Shown: positions 32,571 to 52,624 of the stretch, piece after piece | How positions within the stretch are numbered: the stretch's first letter is position 1 | Layout of the letters: every line of letters starts with the position of its first letter | Sequence record: OQ174501.1 | Length of the DNA: 64,000 nt | Source of the DNA: Escherichia phage REP2 | Strand: one strand, 5' to 3' | Notes under the pieces: model-generated | The model's database searches: none | What the model saw: only the letters and a program-made list of their open reading frames with translations | What the model was told of the DNA's origin: nothing | Position numbers and translations under genes: made by a program

Positions 32571-32711
32571 ATGATATTTCTTGGATATGTGATACTTTTT
32601 CTCGCATTTTATCTATTCGCTAGAGCATGTTGGATTGGGTTCTTTAGCACTCCAGATGGATTTATTTCAATAATTTTATTTTGCATTTCAATGACGGTTC
32701 TTGATATATGA
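32571..32711 (+). CDS. Small hydrophobic peptide (46 aa)
   Basis: MIFLGYVILFLAFYLF...; ATGA overlap with the downstream endonuclease gene. Confidence 0.35.
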   Translation: MIFLGYVILFLAFYLFARACWIGFFSTPDGFISIILFCISMTVLDI

Positions 32712-33331
32712 AAAAATATATAACTTATTTAACAATATATAGTGGAGATAAACTTCCTCCTTTTTATATTGGATCTACGTCTTTAGATAGGCATTTAGCT
32801 GGATATCATGGTTCAGTTTTATCTAAAAAGTATAAGAAAATTTATAATAAAGAGCTTTCAGATAATCCTCACTTATTTGATTCATGTATTTTAGCTGAAT
32901 TTGATACGCGTGAAGAAGCTATTAAATGCGAGTTATATTATCAACGATTGCATGATGCAGTTAAAAATCCATTATTCTTTAATATGTCATATGCTGCTCC
33001 AAAAGGTTCATTTGGAAGAGATAATAAAGGACAAAATCATCCATTATATGGTTCTCATAATTGTAAAGGAAATATACATTCACATGATCCATTAACAGGA
33101 AAATCTGCCTTTTTGCCTTATATTCCAGAAGGTTATGTAAAAGGAAGGTCAAATAAATTTAAAGCTTCATCACATAATAAAGGTAAAAAATGGTATAATA
33201 ACGGAGTTAAGCAAATGTTATGTCATGAACCTCCTGGTCCTGAATGGACAAAAGGAAAAATTAAAGAACTGGTTTCAAAAGCAGCTAAATTAGGATGGAA
33301 AAGACACCATGAAAATACTAAACTTGGGTGA
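32708..33331 (+). CDS. GIY-YIG (Seg-like) homing endonuclease
   Basis: N-terminal YITYLTIY...FYIGSTS GIY-YIG-like motifs; NUMOD3-like GQNHPLYGSHN; lies between alpha-gt and 47, the T4 mobB position. Confidence 0.6.
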   Translation: MKKYITYLTIYSGDKLPPFYIGSTSLDRHLAGYHGSVLSKKYKKIYNKELSDNPHLFDSCILAEFDTREEAIKCELYYQRLHDAVKNPLFFNMSYAAPKGSFGRDNKGQNHPLYGSHNCKGNIHSHDPLTGKSAFLPYIPEGYVKGRSNKFKASSHNKGKKWYNNGVKQMLCHEPPGPEWTKGKIKELVSKAAKLGWKRHHENTKLG

Positions 33332-34588: not shown

Positions 34589-34775
34589 CATTAATGATGA
34601 ATTCATAGCAAACATTGATTATACCGAAGAAGATTCTAGATATGTTGGAATAATTTATATTACATCAAAAACAGCACAAGGTGTTGTTTGCATGGCTGAA
34701 TTTGATGAATACTTTTTAGATTATGATGATATGATAGAATGGTCTAAAAGATACATTAAAAGGAATCTTTTGTGA
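34569..34775 (+). CDS. Hypothetical protein (46.1 position), start uncertain
   Basis: Putative GTG start after aagga; ORF track starts at 34512. Confidence 0.4.
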   Translation: MKFSTFDINDEFIANIDYTEEDSRYVGIIYITSKTAQGVVCMAEFDEYFLDYDDMIEWSKRYIKRNLL

Positions 34776-36460
34776 AGAATTTTAAACTAAACCGAGTTAG
34801 GTATCAAAATATAATGTCAGTAGGTGGAAATCCTATTGACATTCAATTAGATAAGGTTCAAAAAACTCTTATTACTGGACGAAATGGCGGTGGTAAGTCT
34901 ACTATGTTAGAAGCCATCACATTTGGGCTTTTTGGCAAGCCATTTCGTGATGTAAAGAAAGGTCAATTAATAAACAGCACAAATAAGAAAGAACTTTTAG
35001 TTGAACTGTGGATGGAATATGATGAGAAAAAGTACTATATCAAAAGAGGACAAAAACCAAACGTTTTCGAAATCACCGTTAACGGTACACGTCTTAATGA
35101 ATCTGCCAGCAGTAAAGATTTCCAAGCAGAATTTGAACAGCTTATCGGAATGTCATATGCCAGTTTCAAGCAGATTGTTGTCCTTGGTACAGCAGGGTAT
35201 ACCCCTTTCATGGGTTTGTCGACCCCTGCGCGAAGAAAGCTTGTGGAAGACCTGCTTGAGGTAGGAACATTAGCTGAAATGGATAAGCTTAATAAAGCAC
35301 TAATACGTGAATTAAATTCGCAGAACCAAGTGCTTGATGTTAAAAAAGATAGTATTATCCAACAAATTAAAATATATAATGATAACGTTGAACGCCAGAA
35401 AAAATTAACGGGTGACAACCTTACACGTCTACAAAATATGTATGATGATTTGGCAAAAGAAGCTAGAACGCTAAAATCGGAAATAGAAGAAGCTAACGAA
35501 AGATTAGTTAATATTGTTTTGGATGAAGACCCGACTGATGCATTTAATAAAATCGGTCAAGAAGCAGTTTTAATTAAATCAAAAATTGACTCGTATAATA
35601 AAGTCATTAATATGTATCACGAAGGTGGATTATGTCCAACCTGTTTGTCACAATTAAGTTCCGGTGATAAAGTTGTTTCTAAAATTAAAGATAAAGTTTC
35701 TGAATGTACGCATTCGTTTGAACAGCTTTCAACACACCGTGATAATTTAAAAGTTCTTGTTGATGAATACCGAGATAATATTAAAACTCAGCAGTCGTTG
35801 GCAAATGATATTCGCAATAAAAAGCAATCTCTAATCACGACGGTAGATAAAGCTAAAAAAGTTAAAGCAGCTATAGAAAAAGCATCTTCTGAGTTTATTG
35901 ACCATGCTGATGAAATAGCACTGCTTCAAGAAGAACTTGATAAAATTGTTAAGACAAAAACTAATTTAGTAATGGAAAAATACCACCGAGGAATTTTGAC
36001 TGATATGCTCAAAGATTCTGGTATTAAAGGTGCTATTATTAAAAAGTACATTCCATTATTTAATAAGCAGATTAACCATTATCTTAAAATAATGGAAGCG
36101 GATTATGTGTTTACATTAGATGAAGAATTTAATGAGACAATTAAATCCCGTGGTCGTGAAGATTTTAGTTATGCTTCATTCAGTCAAGGTGAAAAAGCAC
36201 GAATTGATATTGCTCTTTTATTTACTTGGCGTGATATTGCTGAAAAAGTTTCAGGTGTTAAAATAAGTTGTTTATTTCTTGATGAAGTGTATGACGGTGC
36301 ATTTGATGCTGAAGGCATTAAAAATGTAGCTAAAATTTTAGATGGTTTGAAGGATACCAACTTCTTCATAATTTCGCATAAAGACCATGATCCGCAGGAT
36401 TATGGACAGCATATTAAAATGGAAAAAGTTGGTAGATTTAGTGTTGCCACTATTAATTAA
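34772..36460 (+). CDS. 46: Recombination endonuclease subunit gp46 (Rad50/SbcC-like ATPase)
   Basis: 562 aa; Walker A GRNGGGKST, long coiled coil with CPTC zinc hook, C-terminal signature/Walker B LFLDEV; GTG start. Confidence 0.9.
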   Translation: MKNFKLNRVRYQNIMSVGGNPIDIQLDKVQKTLITGRNGGGKSTMLEAITFGLFGKPFRDVKKGQLINSTNKKELLVELWMEYDEKKYYIKRGQKPNVFEITVNGTRLNESASSKDFQAEFEQLIGMSYASFKQIVVLGTAGYTPFMGLSTPARRKLVEDLLEVGTLAEMDKLNKALIRELNSQNQVLDVKKDSIIQQIKIYNDNVERQKKLTGDNLTRLQNMYDDLAKEARTLKSEIEEANERLVNIVLDEDPTDAFNKIGQEAVLIKSKIDSYNKVINMYHEGGLCPTCLSQLSSGDKVVSKIKDKVSECTHSFEQLSTHRDNLKVLVDEYRDNIKTQQSLANDIRNKKQSLITTVDKAKKVKAAIEKASSEFIDHADEIALLQEELDKIVKTKTNLVMEKYHRGILTDMLKDSGIKGAIIKKYIPLFNKQINHYLKIMEADYVFTLDEEFNETIKSRGREDFSYASFSQGEKARIDIALLFTWRDIAEKVSGVKISCLFLDEVYDGAFDAEGIKNVAKILDGLKDTNFFIISHKDHDPQDYGQHIKMEKVGRFSVATIN

Positions 36461-37170
36461 TGTTTGTGCTTACAGTTATCATTATGCCACCTTGATAAAT
36501 TTCCGAAAGTGGTAACTTTACCGCAATGGACGCAAGTACCAGTCTTTTCAGTTTTCTTGCGTCCATTTGGATTTTTCTTGCAGAAATTTCTATGCGCTGC
36601 GATAACGCATTTCTTGCCTATCATTCCGCAGAATTCGCAGGATGTTTCTTCAAGAACGATTGCTTTAAGCCCGTTTGAGATATTATTTCTGTGTTCTTTA
36701 GACATTGGTGGTCTAACTTTAGGATTAGGGTGATTTGGGCAGTTATCAAAATGCCAACGATTCATATTCCCGCTTAATCCAGACTTACCGCAATGAGGAC
36801 AAGTTAGTCTTGCTTTATTAGCTACTGCATCAGACATTTTCTTTCGTGTCTCTTGGGAGAATTCTTTGTTCTTTTCTATTTCCCAGAGTTTACGACGAAT
36901 CCAACCGAAAGTTTTATTGTTGCGTTTAGCGTATTTCGTAGAAACTGTCATCATGTTAGCAGCATAGACTAATTTTGGTTCAGAAGGATAAATTTTTACT
37001 AAAAGTTGATGAGCTACATAGTGCTCTTCTGGTGTTAAATCTACTAAGTTTGAAGCATCATCACTTCCATTTAAACAGCGCGGTATAATGTGATGAGATT
37101 CAGTATAACAATCAAGTTTTCGAGATTTAGCATTAGAGATTAACTTTTCATAAATTAGTTTATAATTCAT
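36457..37170 (-). CDS. HNH homing endonuclease with C-terminal zinc-finger repeats
   Basis: HNH motif ESHHIIPRCLNGSDDASNLVDLTPEEH; three CxxC...H...C repeats; own SD aagga; convergent with gene 46, 4-nt overlap. Confidence 0.8.
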   Translation of the reverse strand: MNYKLIYEKLISNAKSRKLDCYTESHHIIPRCLNGSDDASNLVDLTPEEHYVAHQLLVKIYPSEPKLVYAANMMTVSTKYAKRNNKTFGWIRRKLWEIEKNKEFSQETRKKMSDAVANKARLTCPHCGKSGLSGNMNRWHFDNCPNHPNPKVRPPMSKEHRNNISNGLKAIVLEETSCEFCGMIGKKCVIAAHRNFCKKNPNGRKKTEKTGTCVHCGKVTTFGNLSRWHNDNCKHKH

Positions 37171-37221
37171 AATATATCCTTTTGATACAGCGAGTGATAA
37201 ACATATTTATACGGAGGAACT

Positions 37222-37413
37222 GTGGCAGAATATTCAACTGGACAGCATCTATTAACTATTCCTGAAATAAAACGATATATTCTGAGAAATAATTTTTCTA
37301 ATGAAGAGCATATAGTTACTGAATCTATGCTTAGGAATGCATTTAAAGCAGAATATACAAAAATAATGTCCAATAGAAATGAAGCTTGGACTGTTACTGA
37401 TTATTATGACTAA
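37222..37413 (+). CDS. Hypothetical protein (45.2 position)
   Basis: GTG start after ggagg; 63 aa. Confidence 0.5.
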   Translation: MAEYSTGQHLLTIPEIKRYILRNNFSNEEHIVTESMLRNAFKAEYTKIMSNRNEAWTVTDYYD

Positions 37414-37422
37414 AGGTGTATT

Positions 37423-37812
37423 ATGACTAAAATTACTGTGAATTATACTGTTGATGTAAAAGATATTCAGCCAAAACACGTGCGTTCTGACTCAAATCCG
37501 CAAAACCAAAATAAAATTCGTCGAGCATGGGTTTTGTCTCTTTCTGATAACGCAATGGAAGTTATTCAGAATAAAATTAAATCTGCACCTGCTCGTCATG
37601 CGTATTATGAAGCTATCGATCGTGAAGTAAGTAATAAATGGATTGAACTAATGCGCAAACATACTACAGAATCCCTAAACGCCGGTGCTAAATTTATTAT
37701 GACTTCATGTGGTGAACGCCTTGAAGATGAATATTGCGGTAATGCAGATGAACGTCTAATTGTTGCTGCTCAAATTGTTGCCGAAACAATCGCAGCTGAT
37801 TTTAATCGTTAA
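37423..37812 (+). CDS. rpbA: RNA polymerase binding protein RpbA
   Basis: 129 aa; located between 46 and 45 as in T4. Confidence 0.7.
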
Positions 37813-44495: not shown

Positions 44496-45236
44496 ATGAT
44501 TAGTGACTCTATGACAGTTGAAGAAATCCGTCTTCATTTGGGGCTTGCATTAAAAGAAAAAGATTTCGTAGTTGATAAAACTGGCGTTAAAACTATTGAA
44601 ATTATTGGCGCATCATTTATAGCAGATGAACCGTTTATTTTTGGCGCTCTTAATGATGAATACATTCAGCGTGAACTTGAATGGTATAAATCTAAGAGCT
44701 TGTTCGTTAAAGATATTCCGGGTGAAACACCGAAGATTTGGCAACAAGTAGCATCTTCTAAAGGTGAAATTAACTCGAATTATGGCTGGGCTATCTGGTC
44801 AGAAGATAACTATGCCCAGTATGATATGTGTTTAGCTGAACTTGGTCAAAATCCTGATTCTCGACGTGGTATCATGATTTATACTCGTCCATCCATGCAA
44901 TTTGACTACAATAAAGATGGTATGTCAGATTTCATGTGTACTAATACAGTACAGTACCTGATTCGTGATAAGAAAGTCAATGCGGTTGTTAGCATGAGAA
45001 GCAATGATTGCTGGGCAGGCTATCGTAATGATTATGCTTGGCAAAAATACGTACTAGATAAATTAGTATCTGATTTGAATGCAGGCGACCCATCGCGGCA
45101 ATATAAAGCAGGTTCTATTATATGGAACGTTGGAAGTCTTCATGTGTACGAAAATCAGTTTTATTTAGTTGACCATTGGTGGAACACCGGTGAGACTCAT
45201 ATTGCTAAAAAGGATTATACTGGAAAATGGAAGTAA
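44496..45236 (+). CDS. 42: dCMP hydroxymethylase gp42
   Basis: 246 aa; thymidylate-synthase-like fold; conserved position. Confidence 0.88.
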   Translation: MISDSMTVEEIRLHLGLALKEKDFVVDKTGVKTIEIIGASFIADEPFIFGALNDEYIQRELEWYKSKSLFVKDIPGETPKIWQQVASSKGEINSNYGWAIWSEDNYAQYDMCLAELGQNPDSRRGIMIYTRPSMQFDYNKDGMSDFMCTNTVQYLIRDKKVNAVVSMRSNDCWAGYRNDYAWQKYVLDKLVSDLNAGDPSRQYKAGSIIWNVGSLHVYENQFYLVDHWWNTGETHIAKKDYTGKWK

Positions 45237-45867
45237 ATGTGCCACATGTTTATAAGTATAAACATCCTAAAACTAAAAAGTGGTATATAGGAAGTCATGA
45301 TGGTCACAACCCGAATTATGATGGTTCGGGTGTAGTTTGGCAACATGCTAAAAAGAAATATGGAATAAAATCCTTTAATAAAGAAATATTATATGAAGGA
45401 CCAATGTTTAGACAGGTTGAAGAAATTATTTTAACTTGTTTAGATGCTGCTAATTGTCCGGATTCATATAATTTAAAGAATGAAGCATGGGGAGGAAGTT
45501 TTCCAGGCAAATTAAATGGAATGTACGGTAAAAACTATCTCCAGAAGAAAGATATAAGTGCGGAAATGCCTTTCGTGGAATCAAGCGTCCTGATCATTCT
45601 AAAAGAATGAAAGGCGAAGGTAATCCAATGTATGGTAAAAATGAGCAGGCATATGGAATTATAAATCGAGCCAAGGAAAATTCTGGTAAAACTTATGAAG
45701 AAATTTTTGGCGTAGAAAAAGCTAAAATAATTAAAGAAACGATGTCTAAAAATCGTAAAGGAAAACCTCATAATTTGATAGAAAAAATATGTCCGCATTG
45801 CGGACTAAAAGGACGTGGGCCAAATATGACAAGATACCATTTTGACAAATGTAAGGCACTTAAATGA
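45227..45867 (+). pseudogene. GIY-YIG (Seg-like) homing endonuclease gene split by a frameshift
   Basis: ORF 45227-45610 carries VYKYKHPKTKKWYIGSHDG (GIY-YIG) and NUMOD-like GKLNGMYGKN; the second frame, open from 45559 to 45867, carries GNAFRGIKRPDHSKRMKGEGNPMYGK repeats and the zinc finger CPHCGLKGRGPNMTRYHFDKC. Confidence 0.6.
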
Positions 45868-51398: not shown

Positions 51399-52427
51399 AT
51401 GTCATCAATACCTTGGATTGATAATGAGTTTGCATACCGTGCATTAGCTCATTTACCTAAATTCACACAAGTAAATAATAGTTCAACTTTTAAATTGCGG
51501 TTTAGATGCCCTGTTTGTGGAGATTCAAAAACCGACCAAAATAAAGCTCGTGGATGGTATTATGGTGATAATAATGAAGGAAATATTCATTGTTATAACT
51601 GTAACTATCATGCACCAATCGGAATATATTTAAAGGAGTTTGAACCCGATTTATATCGTGAGTATATCTTTGAAATAAGAAAAGAAAAAGGTAAAAGTCG
51701 TCCAGTAGAAAAACCTAAAGAACTTCCTAAACAACCTGAGAAGAAAATAATTAAATCTCTTCCGTCATGTGTTAGATTAGATAAACTGGCGGAAGACCAT
51801 CCAATTATAAAATACGTAAAAGCTCGTTGTATTCCAAAGGATAAATGGAAATATCTTTGGTTTACAACCGAATGGCCTAAATTAGTTAATAGCATAGCAC
51901 CAGGAACATACAAAAAGGAAATTTCTGAGCCTCGTCTTGTTATTCCAATTTATAATGCTAATGGAAAAGCTGAGTCTTTTCAAGGGCGTGCATTAAAGAA
52001 AGATGCTCCTCAAAAATATATCACCATTAAAGCTTATCCTGAGGCAACAAAAATATATGGAGTCGAACGAGTTAAAGATGGTGATGTATATGTTCTAGAA
52101 GGACCTATAGATTCACTTTTTATTGAAAATGGTATAGCTATTACGGGTGGTCAATTAGACCTAGAAGTTGTTCCATTTAAAGATAGACGAGTGTGGGTTT
52201 TAGATAATGAACCTCGTCACCCTGACACTATCAAGCGAATGACTAAATTAGTTGATGCAGGAGAAAGGGTTATGTTTTGGGATAAATCTCCCTGGAAATC
52301 AAAAGATGTCAATGATATGATTAGAAAGGAAGGTGCAACCCCTGAACAAATTATGGAATATATGAAAAATAATATTGCCCAGGGGTTGATGGCTAAAATG
52401 CGGCTATCTAAATATGCTAAGATTTAA
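51399..52427 (+). CDS. 61: DNA primase gp61
   Basis: 342 aa; zinc-binding CPVCGDS...CYNC, TOPRIM-type core. Confidence 0.93.
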   Translation: MSSIPWIDNEFAYRALAHLPKFTQVNNSSTFKLRFRCPVCGDSKTDQNKARGWYYGDNNEGNIHCYNCNYHAPIGIYLKEFEPDLYREYIFEIRKEKGKSRPVEKPKELPKQPEKKIIKSLPSCVRLDKLAEDHPIIKYVKARCIPKDKWKYLWFTTEWPKLVNSIAPGTYKKEISEPRLVIPIYNANGKAESFQGRALKKDAPQKYITIKAYPEATKIYGVERVKDGDVYVLEGPIDSLFIENGIAITGGQLDLEVVPFKDRRVWVLDNEPRHPDTIKRMTKLVDAGERVMFWDKSPWKSKDVNDMIRKEGATPEQIMEYMKNNIAQGLMAKMRLSKYAKI

Positions 52428-52624
52428 ATTAACCCAACTAAAGCAAATGCTAAATCTACAAATGTATCAAGAGTAACTACTGGAATATTAACACCATGCG
52501 CAATTGCAATTGGTGATAAAATAAAGTTCCAGAGTAAAATTCCTACCATAGCAGAAATAGTAAAAGCTATACGTTTCTTATTACCTTTGATGGCATTAAC
52601 AAGTGCCATTAATTTTTGTACCAT
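52424..52624 (-). CDS. Small membrane protein (66 aa)
   Basis: Minus-strand ORF with AGGAGG 5 nt upstream of its ATG; hydrophobic helices; convergent with gene 61. Confidence 0.5.
   Translation of the reverse strand: MVQKLMALVNAIKGNKKRIAFTISAMVGILLWNFILSPIAIAHGVNIPVVTLDTFVDLAFALVGLI

Follow-up and report, generated by a model that had tools for sequence, protein, structure and literature searches.

A predicted free-standing Mob-family HNH homing endonuclease gene with I-TevIII-type zinc fingers at the gene 46/45.2 junction of T4-like phages

The 64,000-nucleotide (nt) stretch of Escherichia phage REP2 analyzed here (OQ174501.1; hereafter the window) carries an intact open reading frame (ORF) on its minus strand, between genes 46 and 45.2 (36457..37170), that starts with ATG and encodes 237 amino acids (aa). 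At 100% identity, the window matches Escherichia phage REP3 (OQ174502.1, Tequatrovirus), whose name we use below; its counterpart coding sequence (CDS), WCA46101.1, is annotated "homing endonuclease" and is 100% identical. The ORF matches phrog_655 (E = 1.5e-68), has 2340 homologues, and is the orthologue of RB32ORF054w, a predicted free-standing HNH homing endonuclease gene. Gene 46 occupies 34772-36460 on the plus strand, and the endonuclease gene converges on its 3′ end, both stop codons falling within the TTAA at 36457-36460. An earlier reading of the letters alone (the original prediction) had proposed an HNH homing-endonuclease-type gene at this position, opposite in strand and overlapping gene 46 convergently, and the ORF, its HNH core, and the empty site in T4 agree with it. 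Its description of the ORF as the only substantial minus-strand gene in 64 kb was also correct, because REP3 annotates just one other CDS on that strand within the window span, a 66-aa ORF (52424-52624); the remaining minus-strand ORFs of at least 120 aa carry no annotation in REP3. A group I intron-encoded endonuclease was considered and rejected, with no Rfam search made, as both flanking genes are complete and the ORF runs between them on the opposite strand; the label "intron-like DNA endonuclease" is nonetheless used for this gene in some records.

The N-terminal part of the protein, from about residues 1-100 to 1-125, is a Mob-family HNH nuclease domain (36871..37170, minus strand). By blastp, T4 MobB matches the endonuclease at 44% identity (E = 2.7e-29) and T4 MobE at 42.5% (E = 1.5e-28); MobB, MobE, MobD, and MobC all match the N-terminal domain (37-53% identity, E from 4.5e-22 to 2.7e-29), and RB3 MobE matches the protein at 36% (E = 6e-23). 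The Mob-family N-terminal pattern, MNYxxIYxxLI ... HHIIPxCxGGxDDxxNLVxLTxxEH, is present. The putative catalytic residues H26, H27, N41, and H50 (37009-37101) do not vary among 75 aligned homologues and are equivalent to H26, H27, N39, and H48 of I-TevIII, whose mutation abolishes cleavage (PMC1865063). An AlphaFold2 (AF2) model built from the 75 homologues (mean pLDDT 92.9) places the HNH strand-strand-helix element at residues 24-60, with strands at 24-27 and 42-45 and a helix at 47-60. The family profile retrieved the EcoKMcrA HNH domain (E = 8e-4), followed by Cas8-HNH and IscB. With the single protein as query, the sequence search of solved structures gave no significant match, and Foldseek found no close solved structure in the PDB, its best matches being weak (E ≥ 0.016): CTCF C2H2 arrays and the HNH domains of Cas8-HNH, IscB, and McrA. 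The invariant residues, the McrA profile match, and the modeled fold thus bear out the HNH core that had been proposed, and sequence comparison assigns the nuclease part to the T4 Mob family of free-standing HNH genes.

The C-terminal half carries three CxxC...H...C repeats, located as originally described. All lie on the minus strand: zinc finger 1 (ZF1), CPHCGKSGLSGNMNRWHFDNC, at 36739..36801 (CX2CX12HX3C; hairpin and helix at residues 121-143 of the model); ZF2, CEFCGMIGKKCVIAAHRNFC, at 36580..36639 (a CX2CX11HX3C variant with 11, not 12, residues from the second Cys to the His; hairpin and helix at 175-196); and ZF3, CVHCGKVTTFGNLSRWHNDNC, at 36472..36534 (CX2CX12HX3C; hairpin and helix at 210-232). 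ZF1 and ZF3 were found by a regular-expression (regex) scan, and all 12 zinc ligands of the three fingers are present. A helix precedes each finger; the one ahead of finger 1 is NUMOD3-like (residues 103-117, 36820..36864, minus strand; sub-threshold Pfam NUMOD3 at 103-115, model helix at 106-117), and PF07460 is present in many homologues. The finger occurs in 118 of the 120 best HNH homologues. ZF3 is the finger common to all 75 aligned homologues, with ligands C213, C216, H229, and C233 invariant among them. Pfam and NCBIfam (in the Pfam copy used) contain no model that recognizes the finger, giving only sub-threshold zinc-ribbon, Lar, or YnfU noise.

The closest characterized counterparts of these fingers are in I-TevIII, encoded in the nrdB intron of phage RB3, whose two C-terminal CX2CX12-13HX3C fingers bind one zinc each and are both required for DNA binding (PMC1865063). 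ZF1 and ZF3 fit that motif exactly, and ZF2 has X11. Residues 174-234 align with the I-TevIII two-finger domain at 38% identity over 63 aa (E = 1.4e-7), and ZF1 aligns with I-TevIII finger 2 (50%, 28 aa) and with T4 NrdB.1 (44%, 41 aa). The protein therefore combines a Mob-type nuclease with I-TevIII-type fingers. I-TevIII itself differs in being intron-encoded, in having two fingers rather than three, with a dimer interface adjoining them, and in belonging to another HNH subtype that gives no blastp match to the endonuclease N-terminus. The fingers share the C-X2-C-X12-H-X3- spacing and the modeled hairpin-plus-helix fold of classical C2H2 fingers such as those of CTCF arrays, but their last ligand is Cys rather than His and they are separated by long helix-containing spacers. 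On this analogy and the model, the three fingers are the predicted zinc- and DNA-binding part of the protein, of a classical-type CCHC form.

Comparison with the T4 Mob proteins shows the same homologous N-terminal HNH domain and the same free-standing placement between conserved genes, at other insertion sites. Homing by a free-standing HNH nuclease has been proven for MobE, which nicks T2 nrdB (PMC2790892). The mobE gene has no promoter and is cotranscribed with nrdA, whereas the endonuclease gene lies on the opposite strand with its own candidate late promoter; likewise, MobB, MobC, MobD, and RB3 MobE (243 aa) have no fingers, in contrast to the three at the endonuclease C-terminus. T4 mobE (141 aa) and nrdB.1 (83 aa), which follows it directly, look like a split Mob + NUMOD3 + finger gene with one finger (L005 41716-42416); NrdB.1 contains the finger CPHCGKKVNKGNALRWHYDKC and can be aligned with REP3 residues 105-144.

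Alignment with insert-free relatives defined both edges of the inserted cassette. The cassette spans ~770 nt and stands in place of the last ~4 codons of gene 46, a 55-nt spacer, and the gene 45.2 start codon. Its left edge falls within those last ~4 codons, where the convergent stops overlap (36457..36460), and its right edge at the gene 45.2 start, GTG-GCA-G (37222..37228, plus strand), which has one additional Ala codon relative to the ATG-G of insert-free phages; from 37229 on, identity to T4 is 100%. The 46|45.2 junction is empty in T4, T2, RB27, and KMB22, and T4 has only the 55-nt spacer there, in line with the earlier remark that no homing endonuclease is known at this site in T4. The T4-type empty junction (160 nt) is at least 95% identical in 444 records, and the site is filled in 58-59 Tequatrovirus records, so that carriers make up about one in ten T4-like phages. 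The gene is thus present or absent at one fixed site among collinear relatives (~58 filled, ~444 empty).

Near-identical copies (97-99% nt identity) occupy the same site and orientation in RB32 (RB32ORF054w, "similar to mobB"), RB51, RB68, slur07, G4498, PhiZZ30, and others, and the filled Tequatrovirus copies are 97-100% identical among themselves. REP3 differs from the RB32-type copies only in the last codons, at the gene 46 overlap (237 vs. 238 aa). The novelty implied by the original prediction does not hold, since the gene is already annotated there in RB32, RB51, RB68, and dozens more records, and a 2010 review tallied two mob-like HNH homing endonuclease genes in RB32 (PMC2993671). Orthologues lie on the opposite strand at 46|45.2 in Dhakavirus KIT01, Mosigvirus mar005p1, and two metagenomic T4-like lineages, one of which has other genes past 45.2; protein identities across genera are about 45-66%. 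Distant one-finger relatives lie at unrelated loci. Six orthologues are intact (232-238 aa, no stop codons) with dN/dS of 0.11-0.23, and the endonuclease gene is 99% identical to its RB32 copy with dN/dS of 0.11; these values indicate purifying selection on the orthologues.

The sequence TATAAATA is the consensus of T4 late promoters. It occurs 33 nt upstream of the endonuclease ATG (37204..37211, minus strand), and a perfect copy lies 31-45 nt upstream of the ATG in five of six orthologues from different genera. This conservation points to late expression from the antisense strand. Between the putative late promoter and the Shine-Dalgarno sequence AAGGA (37177-37181, minus strand) lies a leader element, TATCA-N7-TATCAAA (37181..37199, minus strand), kept as TATC(A/T)-N7-TATCAAA in all six orthologues despite only ~46-66% protein identity; by analogy with I-TevI, it might be an operator for autoregulation. 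The orthologous leaders showed no conserved RNA fold and no consensus structure, and an RNA hairpin hiding the ribosome-binding site (RBS), as in other T4 homing endonuclease genes, was rejected for that reason. A scan of 36200-37500 for sigma-70 promoters and terminators gave sites not above those in shuffled sequence.

Beside the insertion site, gene 46 contains a hypervariable patch (36201..36380, plus strand; 180 nt), covering Walker B to the H-loop of the Rad50-like gp46, that is 77-80% identical to T4, T2, and RB27, compared with 98% for the preceding 600 nt. At least three alleles occur in Tequatrovirus, with 74-80% mutual identity inside sequence that is 97-99% identical. Queried with 326 nt spanning the patch and the gene 46 end (36150-36475), the RB32-type sequence was at least 95% identical in 58 records, as against 80-90% in 450, which suggests that the gene-46 3′ allele travels with the endonuclease gene, as co-conversion would give. 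The gene accompanies this diverged allele in 58 of 59 allele carriers; the exception, KMB22, has the allele without the gene. Over the final ~70 nt of gene 46 and the endonuclease-gene tail that overlaps them (36392-36461), REP3 is unlike all other carriers (82-90% in 60-nt windows vs. 97-100% elsewhere), and its gp46 ends ...RFSVATIN rather than the ...RFSLAKIS of RB32.

Several further features mark the insertion point. An 11-13-nt direct repeat, GGWCARCATYT, lies on both sides of it and encodes G-Q-H-L in both gp46 and gp45.2 (T2, L012 2754-2765 and 2875-2886; Mosigvirus, L014 2755-2767 and 2881-2893; KIT01, L015 1929-1939 and 2766-2776). The repeat varies in parallel across three genera (CAG/CATCT, CAA/CATCTTC, CAG/CATTT); in the window it stands at 37240-37250, with a gene-46 copy at 36404-36414 that is altered in REP3 and RB32, and the pattern occurs once in the 64 kb against 0.41 expected. 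These repeats could be paired nuclease half-sites or the result of gene conversion. The insert-free spacer is a 22-nt tandem duplication of the gene 46 end (ATGGTTTAATTTATAAGAGATT / ATGCTTTAATTTATTAGAGTAT; T2, L012 2797-2840, and the same in T4), whose second copy yields a MotA-box-like TGCTTTA 12 nt upstream of TATAAT. The TGCTT box is absent from REP3 and RB32, so the promoter feeding 45.2-rpbA-45 is probably different in carriers. A different annotated homing endonuclease gene lies between 46.1 and 46 in T2 (L012 255-869), where REP3, RB32, and T4 have no insert, which makes the 47-45 cluster an insertion hot spot.

The original prediction further held that one of these finger repeats is shared with a GIY-YIG gene at 45227-45867 (plus strand), between gene 42 and the glucosyltransferase gene. 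The shared finger, CPHCGLKGRGPNMTRYHFDKC, is indeed there (45790-45852), but in this genome the interval is not a single gene: it is split into two ORFs that are out of frame with each other (45227-45610 and 45607-45867), because a 1-nt deletion shortens an A run to A5 at 45530-45534; phage G4498 has A6 there and an intact gene of 213 aa. The other full-length matches listed for an 801-nt query across the gene are all one base longer; the REP3 deletion reflects a genuine pseudogene or else a sequencing error in the homopolymer. The N-terminus has the motif HVYKY-X10-WYIGS. The gene matches phrog_314 (E = 4e-20) and has no Pfam GIY-YIG match itself; its relatives reach PF19835 SegE_GIY-YIG (26.1 vs. 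25 bits) or PF01541, through which we provisionally assign it to the SegE-like GIY-YIG endonucleases, and the family profile finds the I-TevI catalytic domain as its best, weak PDB match (E = 0.018). No finger of this type was found in any T4 seg gene, in contrast to this one. The gene is polymorphic, present in 77 of 300 records between gene 42 and the glucosyltransferase gene.

The likeness between CPHCGLKGRGPNMTRYHFDKC and ZF1 extends past the Cys spacing, as the check alignment of the repeats showed: 13 of 21 residues are identical, nine of them non-ligand (among them G5, G8, N12, M13, R15, F18, and D19), and the C-terminal piece of the GIY-YIG gene matches the HNH gene's own family, phrog_655 (E = 5e-4). 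The two fingers agree at only 38 of 63 nt (60%), an identity low enough that their sharing is old and that a recent exchange between the two genes was rejected. In both genes, the fingers follow NUMOD3-like helices. The finger ends 59 of 70 GIY-YIG homologues, typically as GxGPNMTRYHFDKC, and the consensus CPHCxKxGxxxNMxR[WY]HFD[NK]C is common to hundreds of HNH and GIY-YIG proteins. Variants cross between the families: the GPNMTRYHFDKC form typical of GIY-YIG proteins occurs in some proteins with an N-terminal HNH motif (P0185, slightly sub-threshold for Pfam HNH at E = 3e-4, and P0189, HNH by motif alone), and a second finger of the form RWHFDNC occurs in some GIY-YIG proteins.

A 44-column profile of the finger and its leader (E ≤ 1e-3, 1.84 billion representatives) matched 9,331 protein clusters, in which a single protein can have as many as 7-8 fingers; the HNH gene's lineage has 1-3 copies. 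Nuclease domains were assigned by a Pfam scan of the 144 top-scoring carriers, regex classing having proved too crude (97 of 145 "other"), and comprised GIY-YIG (24), SegE_GIY-YIG (17), HNH_3 (7), and HNH (6), together with NUMOD3 (40). Searching a word-indexed protein database with the 44-aa profile collected few candidates, nine small finger-only ORFs. The tandem-finger proteins with 7-8 copies include P0200 (357 aa) and P0203 (554 aa); the profile also cross-matches a 3179-aa multi-C2H2 protein (P0212), and P0025 bears a precomputed Pfam entry, PF28519.1, which is not part of the Pfam copy used and may model the finger or the HNH subtype of the endonuclease. These associations support the proposal that a DNA-binding module has been exchanged between unrelated nuclease families. 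The exchange is real and recurrent, but its principle is already established: NUMODs are likewise short DNA-binding units common to GIY-YIG and HNH homing endonucleases (Sitbon and Pietrokovski 2003, cited in PMC1564403), although the CCHC finger is not among NUMOD1-4. The common finger thus reflects old, recurrent shuffling among phage homing nucleases rather than a recent swap between the HNH and GIY-YIG genes.

Taking these lines together, we consider it probable that the ORF is a free-standing, late-expressed Mob-family HNH homing endonuclease gene aimed at the empty junction, and a copy of RB32ORF054w. Its identity, architecture, distribution, and selection come from direct analysis; its expression time, target, and mobility we infer from MobE (PMC2790892) and I-TevIII. 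Transcription would be late only, from its own TATAAATA promoter, and because the gene is antisense, early and middle transcription of the 47-46-45 cluster would not express it. During mixed infection with an insert-free phage, the fingers would attach to that phage's uninterrupted 46|45.2 junction, the HNH domain would cleave close by, whether by a nick, like MobE, or by a double-strand break made as a dimer, like I-TevIII, and recombinational repair would copy the cassette and adjoining gene-46 sequence into the recipient. The carrier would be protected, the cassette splitting the target itself. Intronless homing with co-conversion has been demonstrated for SegF, SegG, and MobE, and the proposed scheme would follow theirs.

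Several observations weigh against this homing scheme or fit it poorly. Pfam HNH falls below threshold for the single sequence (17 vs. 21.4 bits), and a literature search found no paper that describes this particular gene or characterizes its near-identical copies experimentally. The KVGRFT end of gene 46 is unchanged up to the cassette in mar005p1, KIT01, and L020. Consistent "immunity" substitutions in carriers were accordingly rejected (five in REP3/RB32 relative to insert-free Tequatroviruses, none in those three), and because those three keep the insert-free end, the target is conjectural. The hypervariable patch also differs between insert-free phages, in T4 and T2 (74%) and in a Mosigvirus pair; we therefore read it as a general hot spot and rejected it as a pure footprint of the endonuclease gene. 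Finally, one site is filled across genera with divergence roughly in step with that of the hosts, which fits long vertical residence and repeated loss as well. On such an account the gene would have entered ancestrally at 46|45.2, would no longer be mobile, and would have been kept for a benefit to the phage, such as competitor exclusion or a DNA-binding or regulatory role. The constancy of site and orientation in Tequatrovirus, Mosigvirus, Dhakavirus, and the two metagenomic lineages at 46-66% protein identity, the purifying selection, and KMB22, which has the linked allele but no gene as expected after loss, all suit it. So could a match of the T4 spacer to the antisense of the gene's first 13 codons (window 37132-37221; 28/40, with 0/300 shuffles as good), if it were a deletion scar. 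That match, seen with the Tequatrovirus copy, is missing in the Mosigvirus, Dhakavirus, and L022 copies and marginal in L020 (24/40 at the same position, 6/100 shuffles); we rejected it as a scar of the gene's 5′ end and leave it unexplained or due to chance. Against residence stand also the 97-100% likeness of the filled copies and an adjoining gene-46 segment only ~82% identical to ~450 mostly insert-free records, so that the cassette looks recently spread with a hitch-hiking flank. The characterized relatives MobE and I-TevIII are mobile, and competitor exclusion is in any case how homing appears at the population level. We regard residence without mobility as unlikely.

A decaying, inactive relic, comparable to the truncated I-TevIII or mobA of T4, is quite improbable. 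The same genome has a frameshifted GIY-YIG gene 9 kb away, annotations list several defective homing endonuclease genes in T4, and REP3 finger 3 departs from the family consensus (V for P, N for F). However, RB32 has an identical finger and WHNDNC variants occur among further homologues, the full-length ORF keeps all catalytic residues and all twelve zinc ligands, and the 99% identity to RB32 and the low dN/dS, both there and across genera, are accompanied by a retained late promoter and Shine-Dalgarno sequence. Convergence or chance in short Cys/His motifs as the source of the HNH/GIY-YIG finger likeness is scarcely credible. The motif is only 21 residues long, four of which are metal ligands; DNA identity is 60%, and Pfam and NCBIfam yield sub-threshold zinc-ribbon matches and no finger model. 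Such an origin would nonetheless have to account for nine non-ligand identities, the phrog_655 match of the GIY-YIG C-terminus, a consensus common to hundreds of HNH and GIY-YIG proteins with crossover variants, and thousands of clusters retrieved by one profile.

Two other ORFs in the window bear on its annotation. A 207-aa ORF overlapping the gene 47 start (32708-33331, plus strand) is called "HNH endonuclease" in REP3; its protein begins YITYLTIY...FYIGST and matches Pfam GIY-YIG (E = 3e-4) but shows no similarity to the HNH gene, and its T4 counterpart position is that of gene 47.1. The window thus probably has a third gene of homing-endonuclease type here, mislabeled. The 66-aa minus-strand ORF at 52424-52624 is hydrophobic, has no Pfam match, and is flanked by the primase gene and a homologue of gene 56, at about the position of dam in T4. 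REP3 annotation thus shows two problems, the frameshifted GIY-YIG gene entered as two CDS and a GIY-YIG gene labeled HNH, and the widespread finger is itself labeled inconsistently by pipelines ("RpoP," "Zn ribbon," "intron-like endonuclease").

The gene, its class, the finger type, and module shuffling are all already on record, and in that sense the feature is ordinary. A bolder but doubtful idea is that the finger may be more than a clamp, namely a DNA-sequence-reading, arrayable unit like a classical zinc finger, swapped and multiplied by at least four catalytic nuclease families for retargeting, in which case the three fingers here would read the 12-13-nt direct repeats (GGWCARCATYT); if true, the family would be a natural, decodable finger-to-DNA recognition system in bacteriophages. 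More immediately, REP3/RB32-type phages carry a predicted, probably active Mob-type nuclease aimed at 46/45.2, with a possible bias of marker inheritance, when they are crossed to T4 or T2, near 46 and 45, essential genes of recombination and replication. The six diverged orthologues on one junction offer a natural series for how I-TevIII-type fingers may read DNA.

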